This document shows positions 1,009 through 14,431 of a DNA stretch of 14,431 nt, one piece after another. The DNA is from a virus (lineage: Duplodnaviria; Heunggongvirae; Uroviricota; Caudoviricetes). The stretch is from the IMG/VR virus record IMGVR_UViG_2531839529_000011; one strand, written 5' to 3'. Both the position numbers and the translations under genes were made by a program. Position 1 is the stretch's first letter, and each line of letters opens with the position of its first letter. The notes beneath the pieces were generated by a model. That model saw nothing but the letters and a program-made list of their open reading frames with translations. It had not been told where the DNA came from and searched no databases.

Positions 1009-1083
1009 GTCCTCTTAGTTAAATGGATATAACGAGCCCCTCCTAAGGGCTAATTGCAGGTTCGATTCCTGCAGGGGACACTT
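1009..1083 (+). tRNA. argW: tRNA-Arg (anticodon CCU)
   Basis: Cloverleaf readable by eye: acceptor GTCCTCT pairs with AGGGGAC, anticodon loop CT-CCT-AA, T-arm GGTTCGATTCC, discriminator A at 1080. Matches E. coli argW as I recall it. The 3' CCA is not encoded (gene reads ACACTTT), consistent with the island junction at the tRNA 3' end. Confidence 0.85.
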
Positions 1084-1256
1084 TAAAGACCTTTCTCTAC
1101 ATTTCACTTCATTACATAACCACTTAAAAAAAACAGTAAGTTATCACCGAATCGGCCTGATTTTCATTTCAGTTAATTTCATGACATTACAACCTCGTGA
1201 TGGTATAAGTGATGGTATTCCCCAGTTCGATATGCAGATACCATCAATTTACCAAA

Positions 1257-2543
1257 ATGAGTACAGATATGGCCATTAATGTGCTTTCCCCCAAACAGAT
1301 AGAAAACGCCAAGCCGAAGACCAATGATTACAAACTTACCGATGGAGGGAGTTTGTATCTACTGGTACGAAAGACTGGTGGAAAATACTGGCGTATGAAT
1401 TATCGTTTTGATGGAAAACAAGTGACATTGGCATTAGGGGTCTACCCAGATGTCTCACTTGCAACAGCGCGGAAACGGCGTGATGAAGCCAGGCAACTAC
1501 TAGCCGATGGCCGTGATCCTCGCGAAGCAAAGAAACCCAAAAAGGAAGACCCAATTTCCCCCACGTTCGAGAGTGTTGCCAGAGAGTGGCATAGTGGAAC
1601 GATGGGGCATCCTGAGTGGAAAGAGATCACCCGTAAAAAAATTCTCCGAGAAATGGAAAACCACCTCTTTCCTGCCATCGGTTCAAAGCCTATCGATACG
1701 CTCAAAACCCGTGACTTGATGCCGATGCTGGTTGAGATGACTGAGAAAGGAATTGGTGCCACAACGAGCCGGGTAAAAACCACTATGACGAGCATCTTCC
1801 GTTATGCCGTGCAACGTGGAATTGTCGATTACAACCCTGCCCACGATCTAAAAGGTGCAATTACGGCCCCCAAAGTACGACATCGCCCCGCACTACCTCT
1901 CGAACGTTTACCTGAACTGTTAGCGAAAACGAGAAGTTACACGGGAAGACCATTGACTCGCCTAGCAGTTCTCTTTTCCCTGCACACTTTTGTGCGATCC
2001 AGCGAACTACGACATGCCAGATGGGAGGAGATCGACATTGAAAATGGGCTATGGACGATACCAGGACAACGTGAAGAGATCGCAGGGGTTAAATTCTCAG
2101 ATCGGGGTGCAAAGATGGGGGCTGCTCATTATGTCCCGCTATCTAGTCAGGCTATCGGGGTACTGGAGGATATAAGGAAAATCAGTGGTGAATATCTGCT
2201 GGTTTTCCCCGGTGACAGCAACCCATATAAACCGATGAGCGAAAACACAGTTAATAAAGCACTGCGAACGATGGGTTACGACACTCAAACTGATGTATGC
2301 TTACATGGGTTCAGGGCGATGGCCTGCTCTGCACTGACCGAATCAGGACTCTGGTCACGCGATGCAGTTGAACGGCAGATGAGTCACCAAGAAAGAAACG
2401 AAGTGCGGGCAGCATATGTGCATCTTGCGCAGCACATGCAGGAACGCCGCAGAATGATGCAATGGTGGTCTAATTATCTGGAACTAAATAAGGACGAATT
2501 TCATGCTCCTTATGACTTATCAGGTATTAACATTATCAATTAA
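1257..2543 (+). CDS. int: P4-type tyrosine integrase (site-specific recombinase)
   Basis: ORF 1209-2543 with a GTG at 1209; the likely start is ATG 1257 (MSTDMAINVLSPKQIENAKP...) or ATG 1269. N-terminal P4-integrase arm-binding signature (AKPK..YKLTDGGSLYLLV, WRMNYRFDGK). C-terminal catalytic region has HGFRAMA...R...VRAAYVH, the R/H-x-x-R/Y tyrosine recombinase motifs. Confidence 0.9.
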   Translation: MSTDMAINVLSPKQIENAKPKTNDYKLTDGGSLYLLVRKTGGKYWRMNYRFDGKQVTLALGVYPDVSLATARKRRDEARQLLADGRDPREAKKPKKEDPISPTFESVAREWHSGTMGHPEWKEITRKKILREMENHLFPAIGSKPIDTLKTRDLMPMLVEMTEKGIGATTSRVKTTMTSIFRYAVQRGIVDYNPAHDLKGAITAPKVRHRPALPLERLPELLAKTRSYTGRPLTRLAVLFSLHTFVRSSELRHARWEEIDIENGLWTIPGQREEIAGVKFSDRGAKMGAAHYVPLSSQAIGVLEDIRKISGEYLLVFPGDSNPYKPMSENTVNKALRTMGYDTQTDVCLHGFRAMACSALTESGLWSRDAVERQMSHQERNEVRAAYVHLAQHMQERRRMMQWWSNYLELNKDEFHAPYDLSGINIIN

Positions 2544-2573: not shown

Positions 2574-2867
2574 ATGCAGCATTCAACAGAGAATGAAACT
2601 ATATTCTTAGGAAATCTATGGATTGACAAAAAAATACCACCATTAGAATATTGTTCATTTGAACGCGCTTCAAGACTATTAGAATGCGAGATTGATGATT
2701 TATTACACCTATACGAAATAGGCGCTTTTAATATCGCATTCAAGGCGGATGGACTTGCAGTTAGATTTAATGTTAATTTCCTCAATAAAAATCAGAAAGT
2801 GGAAATTGACTTAATTCATCCCGTATTAACTAATCAATCACTAGAGATGGAATTTTCAACAATATAG
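2574..2867 (+). CDS. Hypothetical protein, N-terminal segment of an AT-rich cargo gene (ends at in-frame TAG)
   Basis: ATG 2574 preceded by SD agagg; about 33% GC. Terminates at TAG 2865-2867; the same frame stays open from 2868 into the next ORF. Confidence 0.5.
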   Translation: MQHSTENETIFLGNLWIDKKIPPLEYCSFERASRLLECEIDDLLHLYEIGAFNIAFKADGLAVRFNVNFLNKNQKVEIDLIHPVLTNQSLEMEFSTI

Positions 2868-2954
2868 TATGACCTTAAAGATGATTCCTTTGAACATTTT
2901 GAAAATGGGCTTCAAATTATAGGATTTGCCTGTGGTATTTGGTACGCCGATGAT

Positions 2955-3455
2955 ATGATAAGTGACATAAAAAATGGATTAGCTATAGATCCAGATTATG
3001 AATTCAGGCTTAAACCGGTAAAAATACGAGATAATGTTTTGATGGCAACGGCCTCATATGAAGGAAATAAGGTCATTGATATTCCATTTGAAGATCTTCT
3101 TATCATGCGAAGAGATTTAGAGTTAATATGGAAATCAGTAAAAACTGGAATTCCTATGCCAAGTTTACTTACGAAAAGAATTTCATCTGAACCTAAAATC
3201 CCCAAGCGATTAAATAACACTGCTGAGCATCATGCAAAAAATAGGGAGGGGTTATTAAATGCAGCCATATATATATTAGCAAAATACCCAAGCGAATGTC
3301 GTGGTGAAAGAAAAGAGATAAGTCCTGAAAAGTGGACTAACGCCATAATTAAACATTTAGGAGAGCTACCTCCAATATTTATCACTAATGAACAAGAAAT
3401 CTTAAGAAAATTACGATTAGCGGTTAATCATGCGGGATTAAAACAAAAGGGGTAG
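2955..3455 (+). CDS. Hypothetical protein, C-terminal segment of the same AT-rich cargo gene (positional analogue of the gene between int and alpA in CP4-57-type islands)
   Basis: 166-aa ORF in the same frame as 2574-2867 with no stop between 2868 and 2954. Low GC. No family recognised. Confidence 0.5.
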   Translation: MISDIKNGLAIDPDYEFRLKPVKIRDNVLMATASYEGNKVIDIPFEDLLIMRRDLELIWKSVKTGIPMPSLLTKRISSEPKIPKRLNNTAEHHAKNREGLLNAAIYILAKYPSECRGERKEISPEKWTNAIIKHLGELPPIFITNEQEILRKLRLAVNHAGLKQKG

Positions 3456-3557: not shown

Positions 3558-3773
3558 ATGACATTAAAAACTTATCCTATCACTGGACATGCCCGCCCAC
3601 GAGCTACTGCTGACTTTTTGCAAATAAGTACGGTTACTCTCTGGCGCTGGGAAAAGAACAATCCTGAATTTCCCAAATCTATACGCATTTCAAAACGGGT
3701 ATCTGTTTACGATGCACAAGAAATTAGGCAGTGGGTTAAAGCTCAATCAGCAGGATTGGAGGAAGTAGTGTAA
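3558..3773 (+). CDS. alpA: AlpA-family phage regulatory protein (MerR-like HTH; excision/int regulator)
   Basis: 71-aa ORF with the motif LQISTVTLWRWEKNNPEFPKSIRISKRVSVYDAQEIRQWV, typical of AlpA prophage regulators, in the canonical position downstream of a P4-type int. Confidence 0.85.
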   Translation: MTLKTYPITGHARPRATADFLQISTVTLWRWEKNNPEFPKSIRISKRVSVYDAQEIRQWVKAQSAGLEEVV

Positions 3774-3822: not shown

Positions 3823-4017
3823 TCAATTCTTTGGTTCTAAACCTCGGCTTTGTAACTCTTTGCGTAGAATGCGCTTGATCCAAGCCGCTAGCGATTCATC
3901 GCCATCCTGCTGTTGTGCTTGTTCCATCAGTTCACGCAGTTCAGGGTCAAGTCGGAACTGGAATGGCGGATTCCCACGTCTTTCATTTTTGTGTGTTGAC
4001 ACGTCAATTACACCCAT
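3823..4017 (-). CDS. Small ribbon-helix-helix (Arc/CopG-like) DNA-binding protein, probable island repressor
   Basis: 64-aa ORF. PPFQFRLDPELRELMEQAQQ...ESLAAWIKRILRKEL fits a beta-strand / helix A / helix B RHH layout. Divergent from the replication operon with a palindromic operator over its own promoter. No strong SD. Confidence 0.55.
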   Translation of the reverse strand: MGVIDVSTHKNERRGNPPFQFRLDPELRELMEQAQQQDGDESLAAWIKRILRKELQSRGLEPKN

Positions 4018-5358: not shown

Positions 5359-5420
5359 CAATACAGACGGTTACGCAGATTTCAGCCGCCGCACGGGGGA
5401 AATAGCCCGTTATTCTGCAG

Positions 5421-8027
5421 ATGCTGCGTATTGATGTACCTGAAAACGGCAGGCACGGCCCCTGCCCGAAATGTGGGGGCAAGGATCGTTTTCGCCTTGA
5501 TGACCTTGACGGGCGCGGGACGTGGATCTGCAGCCAGTGTGGCAATGGTGACGGTCTGGATCTGGTTAAGCTCGTAACCGGTTACAGCGTCAGAAAGGCT
5601 GCGCAGGAGGTGGCGCAGGTGCTTAATGTGCCGGATGTGCAGGAACTGCCTGTTAAGCCTGCCAGACAAAAAGCCCCTAAACGCGACATGGGTCTTACCG
5701 TGGCGGCGCTGATGAAAGAGAGCCACACGGGAGAAAGCGCCTATCTGACAGGAAAAGGGTTCGCCGGATACCCGGCCTCTCTGACCGGAAGCGTGCAGCA
5801 TATCAGCGGTAAGGATTTTCCTGCCGGTTCCCTGCTGTTACCACTCACGACCAACACCGGAGCCGTGACCGGTGCACAGCTTATCGCCCCGACGGGTGAA
5901 AAAAGCATACTGCCCGGCAGCACGATGAAAGGCGCGTTTGTGTCGCTCAGCCCGTTACCGTCTGAACCACCGGTACAGGTGGTGATTACCGAAGGTTACG
6001 CTACGGCGCTGACGGTAAGCCAGCTCACTGCCGGATGCGTAGTGGCTGCCATATCTGCGGGCAACCTGCCCAATGTGGCGCAGTCGCTGCGGGCACGCTG
6101 GCCTGAGGTAAAAATTATCATCGCCGGTGATAACGATTTTCAGGACGGGGGGGAGAATCCCGGCAGAGCCTTTGCTGAACGGGCGGCAAAAGCTGTTGGC
6201 GGCTGGATGACGCTGCCACCAGGAGAGATTAAGGCTGACTGGAATGACTTTCATCGGGAGCACGGTATTACCCGTGCCCGTGAAGCCTTTCGCAACGGTC
6301 TGGTACTGTGCGGGGAAGGCCGCACGCAACTGCCGCACGGGTTCCGTCTTACCCAGGAATATCTCTGGTATGAAAAGCAGGTACAGCGCAACGGTGAGAC
6401 GGAGATCCAGAACGTCAAAATATGCAGCCCGCTGCGCGTGACGGCAATCACCTGCGATGCCGATGGCGGTAACTTCGGACGACTGCTGGAATGGGAAGAT
6501 ACGTGGGGTGAGTGTCGCCGCTGGGCGATGCCGATGGAAATGCTGAGCGGCAGTGGTGAGGAACTGCGCCGGGTACTGCTGGTTAACGGGCTGTCTTATA
6601 TCAGCACCACCGGTGAGGCACGCGCACGCCTGATGGAATATATCTCACTGTGTAAACCGGAACGCCGCGTGACCTGCGTCAGTCGTACTGGCTGGCATGG
6701 TCAGGTTTACGTCCTGCAGGATGAGGTCAGCGGTGAAGGTGCAGAGGGTGTCATTCTCCAGACCACTTCCGTGCAGGGGCGTGATTTCCGCGTGTCGGGC
6801 ACAACAGAGGAATGGCGGGAGCATGTATCCCGCTACTGTACCGGCAACTCCCGCGTGGCATTTGCTGTCAGCCTGGCCTTTGCTGCACCACTGTTACGGC
6901 TGGTTGGTATGGACGGCGGCGGCTACCACCTAAAAGGGGAATCGACAGACGGTAAGACCACCACCATGAAAGCGGCAACCTCCGTCTGCGGCGGGCCTGA
7001 CTACTGGCAGACATGGCGGGCCACCGGCAACGCGCTGGAGGGATGCGCCAGCCGCCGCAACGATGCCGCCATGATGCTTGATGAGATCCGGGAAGTTGAC
7101 GGACGCGAGGCAGGCAATATCGCCTACATGCTGGCAAACGGTCAGGGCAAGGGCCGTGCCGGTACGGACGGTGAGCTGCGTACCCGTAAGCAGTGGCGCC
7201 TGTTGTTCTTTTCAACTGGCGAGTTGTCTCTGACCGAACATGCGGCAAAGGCCGGTGAGCGTACTTTTGCCGGGATGGAAGTCAGGATGATCCAGATCCC
7301 AAGCGATTCCGGGAAGTTTGGCGTTTTTGAGGAGCTGCACGGCTTCGACAGCGGCAAGGCTCTGGCAGAGCATCTTGAATGGGCCACGTCCTGCTACTAC
7401 GGTTCGCCGTTCCGGGAGTGGCTGAAAGCACTGACCGCTGATCTTAACGGACTAACGGCACAGGCAAAATCGCTGATGAAGGAATATGCTGCCGCCCTGA
7501 CTCCTAAAGATGCAGGCAATCAGGTGGGCCGGGCTGTGAACCGCTTTGCACTGGTGGCGATGGCAGGTGAACTGGCAACCCGTCTGGGTATCACCGGCTG
7601 GCCTGAGGGTGAAGCACTGCGGGCAACCCGCGTCTGCCTGAACGCATGGCTGAAAGATCGCGGGCACACCGCCAATCAGGAAGATATCGCCGCACTGGAG
7701 CAGGTTCGCAGTTTCTTTACCGCGAATCAGTACAGCCGCTTTGCAGACTGGTATGACGAGCGCAACCGCCCCGGCAATATGGTGGGCTGGCGCAGGGTGG
7801 AGAAAGGCAGTACCGCGCAGGGCACGGAAGCTGTCACTACGTTCTATGTCATGCCGTCCGGCTGGAAAGAAATCTGCAGGGGATTTGACCCGCGTAAGGT
7901 GGCGCGTCTGTGCGCAGATCGTGGATACCTGCTGCCCTCCACTGATGGCAAACTCCAGACAACCATTCGCCCGCCAGAGATGAATCCCCGCAGGCTCTAT
8001 GTCTTCAACAGCGAGGTGCCGGGTTAA
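5421..8027 (+). CDS. P4 alpha-type primase-helicase (zinc-binding primase N-terminus, TOPRIM, D5-like helicase with Walker A, C-terminal iteron-binding region); original N-terminus interrupted by in-frame TAG
   Basis: 868-aa ORF. CPKCGGKDRF...WICSQCGNGDG zinc ribbon; TOPRIM residues VITEGYATAL and IIAGDNDFQDGG; Walker A GESTDGKTT. An ATG at 5355 with strong SD GAGGGGG, coupled to the upstream stop, opens the same frame (MTIQTVTQISAAARGK) but hits TAG at 5403-5405; translation presumably restarts at ATG 5421. Confidence 0.9.
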   Translation: MLRIDVPENGRHGPCPKCGGKDRFRLDDLDGRGTWICSQCGNGDGLDLVKLVTGYSVRKAAQEVAQVLNVPDVQELPVKPARQKAPKRDMGLTVAALMKESHTGESAYLTGKGFAGYPASLTGSVQHISGKDFPAGSLLLPLTTNTGAVTGAQLIAPTGEKSILPGSTMKGAFVSLSPLPSEPPVQVVITEGYATALTVSQLTAGCVVAAISAGNLPNVAQSLRARWPEVKIIIAGDNDFQDGGENPGRAFAERAAKAVGGWMTLPPGEIKADWNDFHREHGITRAREAFRNGLVLCGEGRTQLPHGFRLTQEYLWYEKQVQRNGETEIQNVKICSPLRVTAITCDADGGNFGRLLEWEDTWGECRRWAMPMEMLSGSGEELRRVLLVNGLSYISTTGEARARLMEYISLCKPERRVTCVSRTGWHGQVYVLQDEVSGEGAEGVILQTTSVQGRDFRVSGTTEEWREHVSRYCTGNSRVAFAVSLAFAAPLLRLVGMDGGGYHLKGESTDGKTTTMKAATSVCGGPDYWQTWRATGNALEGCASRRNDAAMMLDEIREVDGREAGNIAYMLANGQGKGRAGTDGELRTRKQWRLLFFSTGELSLTEHAAKAGERTFAGMEVRMIQIPSDSGKFGVFEELHGFDSGKALAEHLEWATSCYYGSPFREWLKALTADLNGLTAQAKSLMKEYAAALTPKDAGNQVGRAVNRFALVAMAGELATRLGITGWPEGEALRATRVCLNAWLKDRGHTANQEDIAALEQVRSFFTANQYSRFADWYDERNRPGNMVGWRRVEKGSTAQGTEAVTTFYVMPSGWKEICRGFDPRKVARLCADRGYLLPSTDGKLQTTIRPPEMNPRRLYVFNSEVPG

Positions 8028-8061
8028 GGCTTTGCGTGAGTCTTATTTATTAAGGGTAACA

Positions 8062-8249
8062 GGTGAAACAGGTGGAACAACCGTATTTTACAGGGCTGAA
8101 CCTGTTCCACCTTCTGAAATAGTGAGGTGGAACAGATGTAACGCCAGCCAATCCGCTGTTCCACCTTGTTACCCGCGATGTTCCACCGGTGCAGTGTATA
8201 TAAATGCTTTATAAAACAAAGCAGTAACACATGTTTCACCTGTTCCACC
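8062..8249. repeat. Iteron array (putative ori/crr-like replication origin): 8 copies of TGTT(C/T)CACC / GGTG(G/A)AACA
   Basis: Copies at 8062-8070, 8071-8079, 8103-8111, 8126-8134, 8157-8165, 8179-8187, 8232-8240 and 8241-8249, in mixed orientation, flanking an AT-rich tract (tgtatataaatgctttataaaacaaa, 8205-8220). Resembles the P4 type I iteron TGTTCACC bound by alpha. Confidence 0.6.
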
Positions 8250-8337
8250 GCATCAGGGACATAAAGCAGACTGAAACAGAGGGTATTTTTATCTGGCTGG
8301 CTTTCATAGCCACGTCTGAATAACCGCAAGCGTCCGT

Positions 8338-8393
8338 TGTGCCAGCCACCACACACTGAGCACCGATAGTGTGCTTGTGTCAGCCACGACACA
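8338..8393 (+). promoter_or_regulatory. Ogr/Delta-dependent late promoter (Psid-like) with two TGT-N12-ACA dyads
   Basis: TGT-N12-ACA at 8338-8355 and 8376-8393, centres 38 bp apart. If the start site is near 8401, they sit at about -55 and -17, as recalled for P4 late promoters. Directly upstream of the sid-like gene (ATG 8428, SD aggag). Confidence 0.5.
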
Positions 8394-8427
8394 ATTGACG
8401 TAACGAACCAACCCGACAGGAGAAGTC

Positions 8428-9171
8428 ATGAACAACACCGCAGTGAATAACAACCTTTCCACTTTTCCGGCTGTAACGCAGCGGGCACTGGAAACCATGA
8501 ACACAGCCAGAAACGCATGGCTTGAAGCACGTCGTCAGCAGAAAGCGGCAGCGGATAATATTGCGACAATCCGCCAGCGTCGCGCTGAAATGGAAGCCAC
8601 GACGAACACACTGAATGAGGAGTGGCGCACGCTGTTTCGTGAAAGTCAGGGCGTGGTCTCAAAGGAAATGAAAAAACTGCGCACGGAAATTGCGCTGGGA
8701 CGAGAAACGCTTGAGGATTTTGATGAGCTGCTGGCGGCTCAGGAAAGCGAAAATGCACTTTTGCCGCAGAAAGCTGCGGAATTAGCCGGAAAGTATATCC
8801 ACGCGCATAACATTCTTGTGGATATTCGCGCAAAACAAATCTGGGAAGATTTTATGCAGTCGCATGGAAAAGCGCTTATTCAGACGCTGAGCCTGCTTAA
8901 ATCCACAATGGGCCGGGAAGCCAGTGCCGTTGTGGGTGTGGTGAATTCAGTTAATGACCCGGACACAGTGCTGAAAGACTTTATTCATAAACATATCACC
9001 AGACCGGCTCTGGCTAACGATGCGATGCCTGAACAGGACCCGGTGTTTAAACTGGCGGGAGTTGCCCCGGATTATGCGGCGCGTCTGGATTTCAGTAATC
9101 AACTCTCTCCGGCAGCTATGCATAAAATAAAGGTTCGTCAGGAACTTGCTGAGAAGGAGAAAGCTGTATGA
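8428..9171 (+). CDS. sid: Sid/Psu-family late protein, most likely external scaffold / capsid-size determination protein Sid
   Basis: 247 aa (P4 Sid is about 244 aa), coiled-coil-rich, first gene behind the Delta-type late promoter. Shares the YI.(A/S)H ... DFMQ.HG.AL motif with Psu-family proteins. Stop overlaps the next start (ATGA 9168-9171). Confidence 0.55.
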   Translation: MNNTAVNNNLSTFPAVTQRALETMNTARNAWLEARRQQKAAADNIATIRQRRAEMEATTNTLNEEWRTLFRESQGVVSKEMKKLRTEIALGRETLEDFDELLAAQESENALLPQKAAELAGKYIHAHNILVDIRAKQIWEDFMQSHGKALIQTLSLLKSTMGREASAVVGVVNSVNDPDTVLKDFIHKHITRPALANDAMPEQDPVFKLAGVAPDYAARLDFSNQLSPAAMHKIKVRQELAEKEKAV

Positions 9172-9293
9172 CGGCCCGAGGCACACCTGACCAGGCACTT
9201 ACCAGTTTTCGGAATGCCCGTATTCTGTGGGCCGGACATAGTGAGACCCGAAAAGCCGTTGAACAACAGATAGCATCTCTCCTCGCTGCGTAA
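9168..9293 (+). pseudogene. psu: psu-like (polarity suppression protein) N-terminal fragment, truncated by the IS66-family insertion
   Basis: ATG 9168 with strong SD aaggag, translationally coupled to sid. Reading frame runs to the IS boundary at 9290 and stops at TAA 9291-9293 inside the IS terminal repeat. Confidence 0.55.
9282..9289. repeat. Left copy of the 8-bp target-site duplication CTCGCTGC flanking the IS66-family element
   Basis: Identical octamer immediately outside both IS ends. Confidence 0.8.
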
Positions 9294-9342
9294 CCGGCTC
9301 ATTTAAACCGTCTGGTCTGTTTCCTCCGGCTCTACAAAAATA

Positions 9343-10020
9343 ATGTCCATCATTTTTAATGGACACTATCGTATGAAACACCGGACCTGGATCACTGAAG
9401 CTTTACGTCTTCACTTTGAAGAACATTTACCCCGGGTTGTGGCCGGGCGTCGCCTGGGTGTACCAAAATCAACAGTTTGTAGTATGTTCGTGCGCTTTCG
9501 GAGAGCTGGCCTTTCGTGGCCTTTGCCCGCAGGCATGTCGGAGCAGGAACTTGATGCCTGCCTTTACGGACAATTTTCCACGGTACCAGTCGTACGTCCT
9601 GAAAGCACCGTTATATCCGAAGCCCCCGTGGTAAAAAAACGTCCCCGGCGGCCCAACTTCCCTTATGAGTTTAAAATCGCCTTAGTGGAGCAGTCACTGC
9701 AGCCCGGAGCCTGTGTGGCGCAGATCGCCCGGGAAAACGGAATCAACGATAACCTGCTCTTCAACTGGCGCCATCAATACCGGAAAGGTGGCCTGCTGCC
9801 TTCCGGAAAAAATATGCCGGCACTGCTTCCCGTGACGTTAACGCCGGAGCCGGATAATAAAATCCCGGCCCCCGCACAGGAACCAGAGCAGATAAATACA
9901 CCGTCCGACAGTCTGTGTTGTGAGCTGGTTCTGCCGGCCGGAACTCTCAGGCTTAAAGGTAAACTGACGCCGGCGTTATTACAGACACTTATCCGCGAAA
10001 TAAAAGGGAGCAGCCACTGA
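9343..10020 (+). CDS. tnpA: IS66-family accessory protein TnpA (orfA; HTH)
   Basis: 225-aa ORF; RRPNFPYEFKIALVEQSLQPGACVAQIARENGINDNLLFNWRHQYRKG is a transposase-type HTH. Start uncertain (ATG 9343 or 9373; neither has a strong SD). Stop TGA overlaps the tnpB start. Confidence 0.7.
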   Translation: MSIIFNGHYRMKHRTWITEALRLHFEEHLPRVVAGRRLGVPKSTVCSMFVRFRRAGLSWPLPAGMSEQELDACLYGQFSTVPVVRPESTVISEAPVVKKRPRRPNFPYEFKIALVEQSLQPGACVAQIARENGINDNLLFNWRHQYRKGGLLPSGKNMPALLPVTLTPEPDNKIPAPAQEPEQINTPSDSLCCELVLPAGTLRLKGKLTPALLQTLIREIKGSSH

Positions 10021-10367
10021 TGATATCTCTCCCTGCAGGTTCGCGTATCTGGCTGGTTGCAGGTATCACCGATATGCGAAATGGCTTTAACGGCCTGGCA
10101 TCAAAAGTTCAGAACGTCCTGAAGGATGACCCGTTCTCCGGACACCTGTTCATCTTCCGCGGACGCCGGGGTGACCAGATAAAAGTGTTGTGGGCTGACA
10201 GTGACGGACTGTGCCTCTTCACCAAACGCCTGGAGCGGGGCCGCTTCGTCTGGCCAGTCACCCGTGACGGCAAGGTGCACCTTACTCCGGCTCAGTTATC
10301 CATGCTTCTTGAAGGTATCAACTGGAAGCACCCGAAACGAACGGAACGCGCTGGAATCCGCATATAA
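10020..10367 (+). CDS. tnpB: IS66-family TnpB (orfB)
   Basis: 115 aa MISLPAGSRIWLVAGITDMRNGFNGLA... recognised as the conserved IS66 orfB product; start overlaps the orfA stop (TGATG). Confidence 0.85.
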   Translation: MISLPAGSRIWLVAGITDMRNGFNGLASKVQNVLKDDPFSGHLFIFRGRRGDQIKVLWADSDGLCLFTKRLERGRFVWPVTRDGKVHLTPAQLSMLLEGINWKHPKRTERAGIRI

Positions 10368-10386
10368 CCCGTTGTAAAGTGAGGAT

Positions 10387-11958
10387 ATGGACACCTCACT
10401 TGCTCATGAGAACGCCCGCCTGCGGGCACTGTTGCAGACGCAACAGGACACCATCCGCCAGATGGCTGAATACAACCGCCTGCTCTCACAGCGGGTGGCG
10501 GCTTATGCTTCCGAAATCAACCGGCTGAAGGCGCTGGTTGCGAAACTGCAACGTATGCAGTTCGGTAAAAGCTCAGAAAAACTTCGTGCAAAAACCGAAC
10601 GGCAGATACAGGAAGCACAGGAGCGAATCAGCGCACTTCAGGAAGAAATGGCGGAAACGCTGGGTGAGCAATATGACCCGGTACTGCCATCCGCCCTGCG
10701 CCAGTCTTCAGCCCGTAAACCGTTACCGGCCTCACTTCCCCGTGAAACCCGGGTTATCCGGCCGGAAGAGGAATGCTGTCCTGCCTGTGGTGGTGAACTC
10801 AGTTCTCTGGGATGTGATGTGTCAGAGCAACTGGAGCTTATCAGCAGCGCCTTTAAGGTTATCGAAACACAACGTCCGAAACAGGCCTGTTGCCGGTGCG
10901 ACCATATCGTGCAGGCACCAGTACCTTCAAAACCCATTGCACGCAGTTATGCCGGAGCGGGGCTTCTGGCCCATGTTGTCACCGGGAAATATGCAGACCA
11001 TCTGCCGTTATACCGCCAGTCAGAAATATACCGTCGTCAGGGAGTGGAGCTGAGCCGTGCCACACTGGGGCGCTGGACAGGTGCTGTTGCTGAACTGCTG
11101 GAGCCGCTGTATGACGTCCTGCGCCAGTATGTGCTGATGCCCGGTAAAGTCCATGCTGATGATATCCCCGTCCTGGTCCAGGAGCCGGGCAGCGGTAAAA
11201 CCCGGACAGCCCGGCTGTGGGTCTACGTCCGTGATGACCGTAACGCCGGTTCACAGATGCCCCCGGCGGTCTGGTTCGCGTACAGTCCGGACCGGAAAGG
11301 TATCCATCCACAAAATCACCTGGCCGGTTACAGCGGTGTGCTTCAGGCCGATGCTTACGGTGGTTACCGGGCGTTATACGAATCCGGCAGAATAACGGAA
11401 GCCGCGTGTATGGCTCATGCCCGGAGAAAAATCCACGATGTGCATGCAAGAGCGCCCACCTACATCACCACGGAAGCCCTGCAGCGTATCGGTGAACTGT
11501 ATGCCATCGAGGCAGAGGTCCGGGGCTGTTCAGCAGAACAGCGTCTGGCGGCAAGAAAAGCCAGAGCCGCGCCACTGATGCAGTCACTGTATGACTGGAT
11601 ACAGCAACAGATGAAAACACTGTCGCGTCACTCAGATACGGCAAAAGCGTTCGCATACCTGCTGAAACAGTGGGATGCACTGAACGTGTACTGCAGTAAT
11701 GGCTGGGTGGAAATCGACAACAACATCGCAGAGAACGCCTTACGGGGAGTGGCCGTAGGCCGGAAAAACTGGATGTTCGCGGGTTCCGACAGCGGTGGTG
11801 AACATGCGGCGGTGTTGTACTCGCTGATCGGCACATGCCGTCTGAACAATGTGGAGCCAGAAAAGTGGCTGCGTTACGTCATTGAACATATCCAGGATTG
11901 GCCGGCAAACCGGGTACGCGATCTGTTGCCCTGGAAAGTTGATCTGAGCTCTCAGTAA
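10387..11958 (+). CDS. tnpC: IS66-family transposase TnpC (orfC)
   Basis: 523 aa with N-terminal leucine-zipper-like coiled coil, CPACGG...CCRC zinc-finger region and the IS66 DDE core. Recognised IS66 transposase family. Confidence 0.9.
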
Positions 11959-11988
11959 ATATCAATACGGTTCTGACGAGTCGCTTAC

Positions 11989-11996
11989 CTCGCTGC
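11989..11996. repeat. Right copy of the 8-bp target-site duplication CTCGCTGC
   Basis: Identical to 9282-9289, immediately after the right IS end (...CGCTTAC at 11988). Confidence 0.8.
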
Positions 11997-12426
11997 CACA
12001 GAAAAACCAACAGATTATGCCCGACAGCTCGAATTACTGCGGGAACGTCTGGATGTGCTGAAATGGCAAATTAACTGTGCTGCTCGCGAATGCATTTACT
12101 CGCAGCATTTATTGATGGAGGCCTGCACTGAAGCTGCTCTCAGCAATTTTATGCAGGCGAATGGGGCAGCCCTGACATCTGCACTGGCTCCGTTCCTGAA
12201 GGGGCGCGGAGGGGTTGACGTTGCGTCCCGTATATTACGCAGTGCTCTGGTTCGCCAGCTGGCAATAACACCGCCTGAAATTGCCGGGGATTATCGTGAG
12301 ATCCTGGATGAATCCGGTTTGATGCCAGACCCCGGGATGATTCGTGATTGCCAGGGCTCTTACACCCCGGCACAACATCTGCGTTTTCAGCAACGCCTGA
12401 ATGACATTAACGATATACAGGAGTGA
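11997..12426 (+). pseudogene. psu: psu-like C-terminal fragment (in frame with 9168-9289 once the IS and one TSD copy are removed)
   Basis: Frame is open from 11998 to TGA 12424-12426; the ORF track finds it from GTG 12055. The joined product is about 183 aa (P4 Psu is about 190 aa) and carries VLKWQINCAAR...FMQANGAALTSALAPFL, matching the Psu signature as I recall it. Confidence 0.55.
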
Positions 12427-12431
12427 TATTA

Positions 12432-12704
12432 ATGGCACTTAAATGTCCGGAATGCGGTACAGTTGCACACGCCAGAACAGCAGCCTATGAAGCTCCGTCA
12501 GTTAAACGCTCGTGGTATCAGTGCCAGAATCTGGAATGTTCCTGCACATTTACGGCACTGGAGAGTGTGGATAAGATAATCATGAAACCCCGGCGCAATG
12601 AACAGGAACCAGACAAATCACAACCCCCGGTAAAACAACAGCAAACGCTCAATCGCTATGGCTCCGCGTCAAAACTGTCAAGCCGTCAGCAGATTCCTGT
12701 CTGA
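12432..12704 (+). CDS. Ogr/Delta-family zinc-finger late transcription activator
   Basis: MALKCPECGTVAHARTAAYEAPSVKRSWYQCQNLECSCTFTALESV has the Ogr/Delta C-x2-C...C-x4-C signature. ATG 12432 with SD caggag; the ORF track extends to a GTG at 12423. Confidence 0.8.
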   Translation: MALKCPECGTVAHARTAAYEAPSVKRSWYQCQNLECSCTFTALESVDKIIMKPRRNEQEPDKSQPPVKQQQTLNRYGSASKLSSRQQIPV

Positions 12705-12724: not shown

Positions 12725-12750
12725 AATCCCGGTCAAGTACCGGGATTTTT
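12725..12750 (+). terminator. Rho-independent terminator of the late operon
   Basis: Perfect 9-bp stem AATCCCGGT / ACCGGGATT with 5-nt loop, followed by TTTTT, 20 bp after the delta stop. Confidence 0.6.
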
Positions 12751-12967: not shown

Positions 12968-14431
12968 CTACCCATGACATTTTTTGAATTTTTTTCCTGA
13001 GCCACAATAGCAAGGCTCATTTCTTCCCATTTTTTTTTCATTATTAACTATAGGGAATGTAGACATATATGATGTCGGCTTAGGCAAGATGTCTGTAAGA
13101 ACGCTATACTCCTTCATGGATTTTTTCGCTAATAAGCGCTCATCCTTTGTAAGTGGCTCATCAAACTTACAATAAACAACATCTTCAGAACGGCCCTCAG
13201 AATCTTTGCTTTCCGTTGCAATAATTATCAACTTCTTAATTTGACTGTATTTATACTTCGCCACTAGTGCATACATTTGCACGCAAGAAAAACGCTCCAA
13301 TCTATATTTTTCATATGATAACCCTTCATCACGCGGAAAGAACAAAAAAATATAATATTTGCCTTTTTCGTCAATCGACTCAACAATCCTAGAACTTCTT
13401 CTATTAGTAGGAACCTGTTTGAACTTTTCTATAAATGCCTTAGAAAGATGATATCTTGACACTCTGCTTTCTGCTGCCAGTTGTCTAACTGTTTCCTCAT
13501 GACTATGAAAGTCATTTTCTATACCCAAACCTACAGTTGCAGTAAGAATTGATTCCGAAAGTCTCTGTATCATTTCATCCCAAAACACACTTCCTTTTTT
13601 CATTGCCTTGTAATAATCATACTGAGGAGATTTTTTTAACACTTCCCACTCATTTTCTGCTATTTGCACAAATGTATTTTCAGGTACCAATTTCTCATCT
13701 ACAATCACCCCATGCCCGCTCAAATATGCAGCCAAAGTATCATCTTCTCCTGGACTTAATCTCAGAAGGCCAGAACGGACAACACGTTCCTTCTCTTTCA
13801 AGTAACTAACAAAGTCAGTAATTGTATCTAACTCCGACAATAAGAGATTTAATGACAATTCATCTAACACATGAACAAATGTTTTATTTGGATAAATATC
13901 TCCAATGGAAAAAGGTTGCTCCATACTTTCCTTTATTCCAAATGAGAAAACATTCATGAGAGTACCAGAACTCCCTTCAGCTATACGTGAAAAAAAATTA
14001 GATGCAGGAACCGAACTATTATTGGTTACAGCGATAAGGAAAAACCTCATATCTCTATTTATTTTAACTGGAAAGGGAACTTTGCATTTTTTATCTAAGA
14101 ACAATCGTCCATGATGATCTTTTAAAAACTTCTCTGCCCCATGTAACTGAACAGCCGATTCAGTTATGGATCTTTTAAACCATCTTTTCCATGCTATAGA
14201 AACTTCAATCTCTTCGTTAAAGTTAATATCCTTATCTGAAAATAAAATCACATTATCTTCAAAAACAACTAATAAATCACACACCTCCTTCCCCGATTTG
14301 TTTTTAGAAAGCCCTTCATCACTATACACATTAGGATATGACCATAAACCAATAAACGCACTATTAGCCAGTTCTATTAATCTTTTTTCAGTTTGATTAA
14401 CTCCCTGCCCTTTGTTAATCACTTTTAACAT
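12968..14431 (-). CDS. 487-aa protein of unknown function with C-terminal SEC-C zinc-binding motif; low-GC cargo in the P4-type hotspot position (candidate defence protein)
   Basis: Complete ORF whose ATG is the last three bases of the window. C-terminus ...[17 protein letters not shown] is a canonical SEC-C motif (as at the SecA C-terminus and in YecA). About 30-33% GC against about 55-63% in the backbone. No family recognised for the body. Confidence 0.8.

Follow-up and report, generated by a model that had tools for sequence, protein, structure and literature searches.

The stretch of DNA considered here is IMG/VR virus record IMGVR_UViG_2531839529_000011, a window of 14,431 nucleotides analysed at its full length, in which the late gene psu of a P4-like satellite has been split by a copy of ISCro1, an insertion sequence (IS) of the IS66 family. 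The interrupted gene is the middle one of three in a late operon, sid-psu-delta, whose parts are laid out as follows (coordinates are those of the window):

8428..9171, + strand: sid homologue, 247 amino acids (aa), intact (phrog_6165, 311 bits)
9168..9293, + strand: psu 5' fragment, native codons 1-41 and then a TAA from the GTAA terminus of the IS
9282..9289, strand not applicable: left copy of the 8-bp target-site duplication, CTCGCTGC
9290..11988, + strand: ISCro1 (IS66 family), 2,699 bp, recognised from Pfam and from the RefSeq names of near-identical copies; its parts, all + strand, are the left inverted repeat (9290-9315), tnpA (9343-10020), tnpB (10020-10367), tnpC (10387-11958) and the right inverted repeat (11963-11988)
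11989..11996, strand not applicable: right copy of the target-site duplication, CTCGCTGC
11997..12426, + strand: psu 3' fragment, codons 42-183, whose sole potential start of its own is an internal GTG at 12055
12432..12704, + strand: delta, a zinc-finger activator of the Ogr/Delta family, 90 aa, intact and with its own AGGAG ribosome-binding site (Pfam PF04606)

The boundaries of the insertion can be read to the base. On both strands of the window the octamer CTCGCTGC occurs at 9282-9289 and 11989-11996 and nowhere else, and the probability that the 8 bp flanking an arbitrary segment are identical by chance is ~1.5e-5. Between the two copies lie 2,699 bp that start with GTAACC and finish with GCTTAC, and the terminal inverted repeats agree at 18 of 26 end positions, with GTAA at the beginning of each end. 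The psu start codon (ATG, 9168) overlaps the TGA stop of the upstream 247-codon gene as ATGA; from there the frame runs to the insertion point at codon 39-41 and ends after native residue 41, where the IS terminus supplies the TAA, giving a 41-aa product that gene callers have reported in other assemblies. The window holds a psu pseudogene, with no intact Psu frame. When 9168-9289 is spliced to 11997-12426, the resulting 552 nt comprise 183 codons and a stop, with no stop between. An initial annotation, made from the letters alone, had described a perfect 8-bp duplication around an IS at 9290-11988, an in-frame join of about 183 codons and an intact three-gene IS. Every coordinate it gave is correct: the octamers are identical and present in just those two copies, the join is free of stops, and the three IS frames (225, 115 and 523 aa) are all open.

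Judged by its sequence, the rebuilt gene is a full-length member of the Psu family. Its 183-aa product matches the Pfam Psu profile PF07455 at 151.5 bits (cut-off 27.4) over profile positions 2-180 of 182, scores 236 bits against phrog_6366, the PHROG to which P4 Psu also belongs, and aligns with the solved P4 Psu chains 3rx6/4dvd at an E-value of 8e-14 (residues 8-174 against 7-180). By blastp it is 29.5% identical to P4 Psu over 176 aa, and the motifs that the initial annotation had given as a Psu signature align with KWQVNQAA and FMQQHGTALAAALAPEL of P4 Psu. The comparison with P4 Psu that it had called for thus comes out in its favour, in the Pfam, PHROG and 3rx6 matches alike, over the full length and at ~30% identity.

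The neighbouring genes fit the same operon. P4 Sid matches phrog_6165 at 387 bits and so belongs to the same family as the 247-aa protein, which is 24% identical to P4 Sid in a small-database blastp whose E-values are flattering; a tblastn search of 50,697 phage records, P4 among them, returned no match to the 247-aa protein at E 1e-3, so its pairwise resemblance to P4 Sid is weak, and the assignment to Sid consequently rests on the PHROG profiles and the small-database comparison. The C-terminal half of the same protein passes the Pfam Psu threshold (37.8 bits). Sid and Psu have been described as distant paralogues (PMC8628076, PMC11718236), with which both the P4 Sid PHROG match and the Psu profile over the C-terminal half agree, as does the proposal in the initial annotation that the upstream gene is a Sid paralogue of psu. 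Downstream, the delta product is 45% identical to the N-terminal half of P4 Delta (blastp). Sid and delta now stand 3.1 kb apart, against 0.55 kb when psu is uninterrupted.

All three proteins of the IS carry Pfam domains in keeping with the IS66 family that the initial annotation had proposed: PF01527 (HTH_Tnp_1) in TnpA (225 aa), PF05717 (TnpB_IS66) in TnpB (115 aa), and in TnpC (523 aa) DDE_Tnp_IS66 (PF03050, 341.7 bits) together with LZ_Tnp_IS66, zf-IS66 and the IS66 C-terminal element, the further TnpC accessions matched being PF13005, PF13007 and PF13817. Copies 99.7-99.9% identical, with the RefSeq label 'IS66-like element ISCro1 family', occur in thousands of E. coli replicons. The copy in E. 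coli ATCC 43896 is 99.96% identical, a single base apart, and encodes WP_000381395.1, whose RefSeq name is 'IS66-like element ISCro1 family transposase'. On these sequence matches the element is ISCro1 of the IS66 family, a name given by proxy from RefSeq labels on copies 99.7-99.96% identical. ISCro1 was first named in Citrobacter rodentium. One base of this copy, 11174 in tnpC, changes proline 263 of the transposase to leucine (P263L); the leucine is seen only in the assembly from which the window comes, its lineage relatives carrying the usual base. P263L was considered as a change that might cripple the element and is probably harmless: residue 263 is P, Q or K in the named IS66 elements ISEc8, ISEc22, ISEc23, ISKpn24 and ISKox1, and lineage relatives keep the proline. 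Because this residue is variable among IS66 transposases, the copy is best regarded, from its sequence, as intact.

The uninterrupted gene also exists in nature. Over its 1,570 bp the rebuilt sid-psu-delta segment matches the E. coli 025542-1 chromosome at 100% identity; there a natural site with a single octamer bears out the initial annotation's uninterrupted gene, and RefSeq lists the unbroken 183-aa product as 'phage polarity suppression protein'. The window less the IS and one octamer (11,724 bp) aligns with that chromosome without a gap and with two mismatches, so the insertion consists of exactly the 2,699-bp IS and the 8-bp duplication. The occupied site, for its part, is found well beyond a single record. 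Contig AQFF01000019.1 of the draft assembly GCA_000355175.1 matches the window at 100% identity, and one or both junctions recur in a metagenome scaffold and six more NCBI assemblies (left in GCA_049988505.1, GCA_003980805.1 and GCA_003980945.1; right in GCA_003981655.1, GCA_049982625.1 and the metagenome scaffold). In the index of the collection, 38 blocks contain the truncated 41-aa product; in 24 of 24 contigs read, the truncated psu is accompanied by the two further lesions described below, and the psu::IS junction is absent from all of 5,426 complete E. coli genomes. The insertion is real, marks a lineage and is not brand new. The initial annotation had called it recent, which holds in that the gene can still be rebuilt exactly; it is recent in a relative sense only, since at least 24 sequenced contigs of one lineage carry it as a fixed allele. 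Several strains of this near-clonal group came from human diarrhoeal stool.

Around the late operon the window contains the following features:

1009..1081, + strand: tRNA-Arg(CCT), argW (ARAGORN, Rfam); its 3' end, 1061-1081 (TTCGATTCCTGCAGGGGACAC), is the core of the left attachment site, attL
1197..1218, + strand: two tandem GTGATGGTAT repeats adjoining attL
1269..2543, + strand: tyrosine integrase, 52% identical to P4 Int (Pfam, blastp and the RefSeq annotation of an identical gene)
2574..3455, + strand: a 293-codon gene, interrupted by an amber stop, with no match in Pfam, PHROG or PADLOC
3558..3773, + strand: AlpA-family regulator (Pfam PF05930)
3823-4017, - strand: candidate Arc-like repressor, 64 aa
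4129-4305, + strand: Icd-like protein of 58 aa, which shares 54% identity with the C-terminal end of the cI frame annotated in P4
5355..8027, + strand: alpha-type primase gene (Zn ribbon, Toprim and DUF927 domains) with an amber stop at codon 17
8338-8355 and 8376-8393, + strand: two TGT-N12-ACA dyads, 35-90 nt upstream of sid
12725..12750, + strand: hairpin AATCCCGG-N7-CCGGGATT followed by a run of T, read directly from the sequence and absent from the terminator-scan list
12968..14431, - strand: a 487-aa cargo gene with a SEC-C motif ('YecA family'; Pfam, phrog_18195)

Taken together, these sequences identify the host element as an 11.2-kb P4-like satellite at the tRNA-Arg(CCT) gene of E. 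coli. It is inserted at argW, flanked by yfdC and the csc/dsdA genes, and its right attachment site, attR, is a near-identical 20-nt copy of the attL core lying past the window end at window-equivalent coordinate 14941. The distance from attL to attR is 11,173 bp in the uninterrupted element and 13,880 bp with the insertion. Pairs of GATGGTAT, similar to the tandem repeats beside attL, adjoin attR (at ~13720-13745 of locus L001); by their form and position these are likely arm-type sites of the integrase, which suggests that the attachment sites are intact. The N-terminal 316 residues of the primase are 38% identical to P4 alpha, and a DUF5375 homologue of P4 orf106 lies upstream of the late operon. 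Homologues of int, alpA, alpha, sid, the split psu and delta were all found; an epsilon homologue was not detected by sequence, Rfam on the window returned only the tRNA and no P4-type immunity RNA family, and the 19-nt P2/P4 cos was not found within three mismatches apart from short chance matches, an absence that says little because the helper, and with it the cos, may differ. The two dyads ahead of sid resemble the Ogr/Delta sites of P2 and P4 late promoters, being candidates by position only: across the whole window the count of TGT-N12-ACA is not above chance, since 7 occur where 3.75 would be expected and 16 of 200 shuffled sequences contain at least as many. At the other end of the operon, the hairpin and T run at 12725..12750 form a probable terminator of sid-psu-delta. 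Homology to related satellites stops ~220 bp past delta, and a variable cargo region has been described for P4-like satellites (PMC9122126). The 487-aa gene found there is a candidate anti-phage gene, of which PADLOC matched only the 25-residue SEC-C motif, so that no defence system can be named.

Psu is not the only casualty in this satellite. Both mismatches between the window and 025542-1 are G-to-A changes that turn TGG into TAG. The first, at base 2866, creates an amber stop (2865-2867) at codon 98 of the 293-codon gene; the second, at base 5404, creates one (5403-5405) at codon 17 of alpha, where the lost tryptophan aligns with W16 of P4 alpha. With substitutions placed at random in 11.7 kb, the chance that both of two would be nonsense is 0.0006-0.0024. 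The initial annotation had thought the insertion in principle reversible, and for the gene this stands, in that precise excision would restore psu. For the element it does not: excision is rare, and even a precise event would not restore the satellite because alpha and the 293-codon gene would keep their amber stops.

Beyond the window, the same assembly carries two private changes of its own downstream, namely a third TGG-to-TAG, in the sucrose permease gene cscB, and an Ala-to-Glu substitution in cscA (positions 14509 and 17123 of locus L008 for the cscB and cscA changes). In all four transitions of this assembly, at 2866, 5404, 11174 and in cscB, the second C of a CC pair becomes T on one strand or the other, a sample too small to interpret.

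Related strains show that ISCro1 has visited this operon more than once. The complete genomes ATCC 43896, 504838 and LR882997 carry the same satellite, differing from the window's underlying sequence only at the two amber sites, and in all three an independent ISCro1 lies inverted in delta codons 39-41, flanked by the duplication ATTTACGG (in ATCC 43896 at 15350-18048 of locus L002). In a related satellite of E. coli O26:H11 11368 and ~100 other genomes, ISCro1 lies ~280 bp downstream of delta (~7550-10250 of locus L015). With the O26:H11 case, ISCro1 has struck this short segment of the satellite family three times, which may reflect either target preference or tolerance. Across the 60 closest complete-genome relatives, an IS lies between alpha and delta in five and the operon is intact in 55. 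Insertions of IS1, IS2, IS100 and ISCro1 are scattered through related satellites, and each sister-strain genome has 6-10 places that match ISCro1.

How, then, might the insertion have altered the satellite? In our assessment it is very probable that ISCro1 transposed into psu of this argW-integrated satellite and that what is left is, most likely, an immobile chromosomal remnant. Transposition into codon 39-41 of the middle gene of sid-psu-delta created the 8-bp duplication and left a 41-residue stub. The Psu dimer is known to cap capsid hexamers and to clamp Rho (PMC11718236); such a stub would be unable to form the dimer, and the satellite would lose both capsid decoration and the inhibition of Rho. 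Transcripts from the sid promoter would then arrive at delta only after the 2.7-kb IS and a psu remnant of ~470 untranslated nt, and because these now precede it, delta expression is probably reduced by polarity. ISCro1 lowered downstream transcription at the afa locus, the one case tested (PMC8764528), and P4-like satellites are considered to require delta (PMC8628076). The insertion probably also leaves the element too large: at 13,880 bp it exceeds the ~12 kb that is quoted as the limit of the small P4 head (PMC9122126). The combined effects on psu and delta, the excess size and the alpha stop suggest that this lineage's satellite has most likely lost its mobility, persisting in the chromosome with its integrase, sid, delta and cargo gene intact. 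The initial annotation is silent on delta polarity, on the effect on genome size, on the two amber stops and on the ISCro1 copies in delta of sister strains.

Several observations weigh against this account. Psu activity has been demonstrated for P4 Psu alone, which is ~30% identical to the rebuilt protein, and the 12-kb packaging limit was derived from P4 and P2, not from the helper of this satellite. The IS genes are co-oriented with delta, which keeps its AGGAG site, so read-through into delta is possible; a consensus scan found no + strand terminator-like site inside the IS or between tnpC and delta. Consensus scans for promoters and terminators gave match numbers no higher than the shuffle expectation and offer no usable evidence on delta transcription. 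In alpha, translation may reinitiate at an in-frame Met23, 15 nt past the amber stop, and gene callers report the 868-aa product that this would give, so the gene may not be fully null.

A separate question is why the damage accumulated. The explanation we hold to be somewhat more likely than selection, and slightly better than even in its own right, is that the insertion and the stops reflect drift in a dispensable element during an expansion of ISCro1. The several kinds of IS scattered in related satellites (IS1, IS2, IS100 and ISCro1) are what such drift would leave behind, and satellites that lack a helper are not under purifying selection. In P4 itself psu is dispensable for growth. Many P4-like satellites, moreover, have no psu (PMC8628076). 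Uniform neutrality, however, makes two nonsense changes out of two, together with two ISCro1 hits within ~700 bp of one operon, unlikely.

These same features lend some weight to selection at the level of the host, which we consider a possible but less probable cause: costly late and replication functions would be inactivated and the cargo kept, as domestication of the satellite in progress. The candidate costs are the inhibition of Rho by Psu, the activation of helper lysis genes by Delta and the replication driven by alpha. Four independent inactivating events, and no silent one, are found in 11.7 kb across the sister lineages; the only two substitutions are both nonsense, at the low probability given above (0.0006-0.0024); the inverted ISCro1 in delta of the sister strains arose independently, and both IS events plausibly lower Delta; and the SEC-C cargo gene and the integrase are intact. 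Yet the test was made post hoc on just four events, these genomes abound in ISCro1, which is active there (the 6-10 places in sister strains), IS elements tend to accumulate in mobile DNA in general (PMC3072379), and 55 of the 60 closest complete genomes keep an intact operon. The third TGG-to-TAG, in the unrelated cscB, hints in addition at some mutational or quality peculiarity of this assembly.

That the insertion has instead switched the operon on, with transcription from ISCro1 making Delta expression constitutive, strikes us as improbable. The arrangement would allow it, with IS genes co-oriented with delta, no + strand terminator-like site from tnpC to delta, and a ribosome-binding site that belongs to delta. 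However, there is no outward promoter-like site at the right end of the IS, the only consensus match in the vicinity stops 2 nt short of the delta ATG, and promoter-like matches number fewer than shuffling would produce. ISCro1 cut downstream transcription in the tested case (PMC8764528), and a sister lineage has destroyed delta outright. Finally, that a repeated IS was misplaced inside psu during assembly, an idea prompted by the draft status of the source and by a tnpC base (11174) unique to it, is effectively refuted by the presence of both junctions in independent assemblies, the perfect duplication and flanks that match the empty site exactly.

Neutral decay remains the preferred origin of a case that is, at bottom, an ordinary IS knockout in a multiply damaged, decaying satellite, for which selection for silencing is a possible but less probable cause. 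Some of this was already known, since the IS and the gene family are named in public annotation and psu-deficient P4-like satellites have been documented. The value of the locus is modest and lies in the natural allelic series to which it belongs, in which one satellite exists intact (025542-1), as delta::ISCro1 (ATCC 43896 and relatives) and as psu::ISCro1 with two amber stops. As an experimental resource the series could be used to study the roles of Psu and Delta in mobilisation, as well as the polarity of the psu insertion on delta in a satellite without its own anti-Rho factor. It could also show whether hosts gain by grounding a satellite while keeping its cargo gene.

Set beside known systems, the locus departs from each in a particular way. 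The rebuilt protein is like P4 Psu in its full-length match, in sharing the same Pfam family and PHROG, and in conserving the motifs KWQ(I/V)N..AA and FMQ..G.AL..ALAP; its gene likewise sits in a late operon with sid and delta, within a tRNA-integrated satellite of ~11 kb. P4 Psu has 190 aa, whereas the rebuilt protein has 183, and here the gene is split by the IS so that only residues 1-41 are encoded. The late genes of P4 run sid-delta-psu and those of the window sid-psu-delta, a swap of order found in ~20% of P4-like elements (PMC8628076). The IS itself has the hallmarks of ISCro1, with co-oriented tnpA, tnpB and tnpC, the IS66 domain set, GTAA termini and an 8-bp target duplication, and carries one private tnpC substitution (P263L). 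The delta::ISCro1 allele shares with the window the satellite, the argW site, the IS variant and an 8-bp duplication, but is a separate event, in which psu, alpha and the 293-codon gene are intact. The closest parallel in outcome is provided by the psu-less 'Type B#06' satellites surveyed by Moura de Sousa and Rocha (2021, PMC8628076), which likewise have no functional psu and keep their other core genes. Only 8% of the psu-less variants surveyed there retained a psu pseudogene that could be recognised (PMC8628076), whereas here the loss is recent and the gene can be rebuilt exactly.

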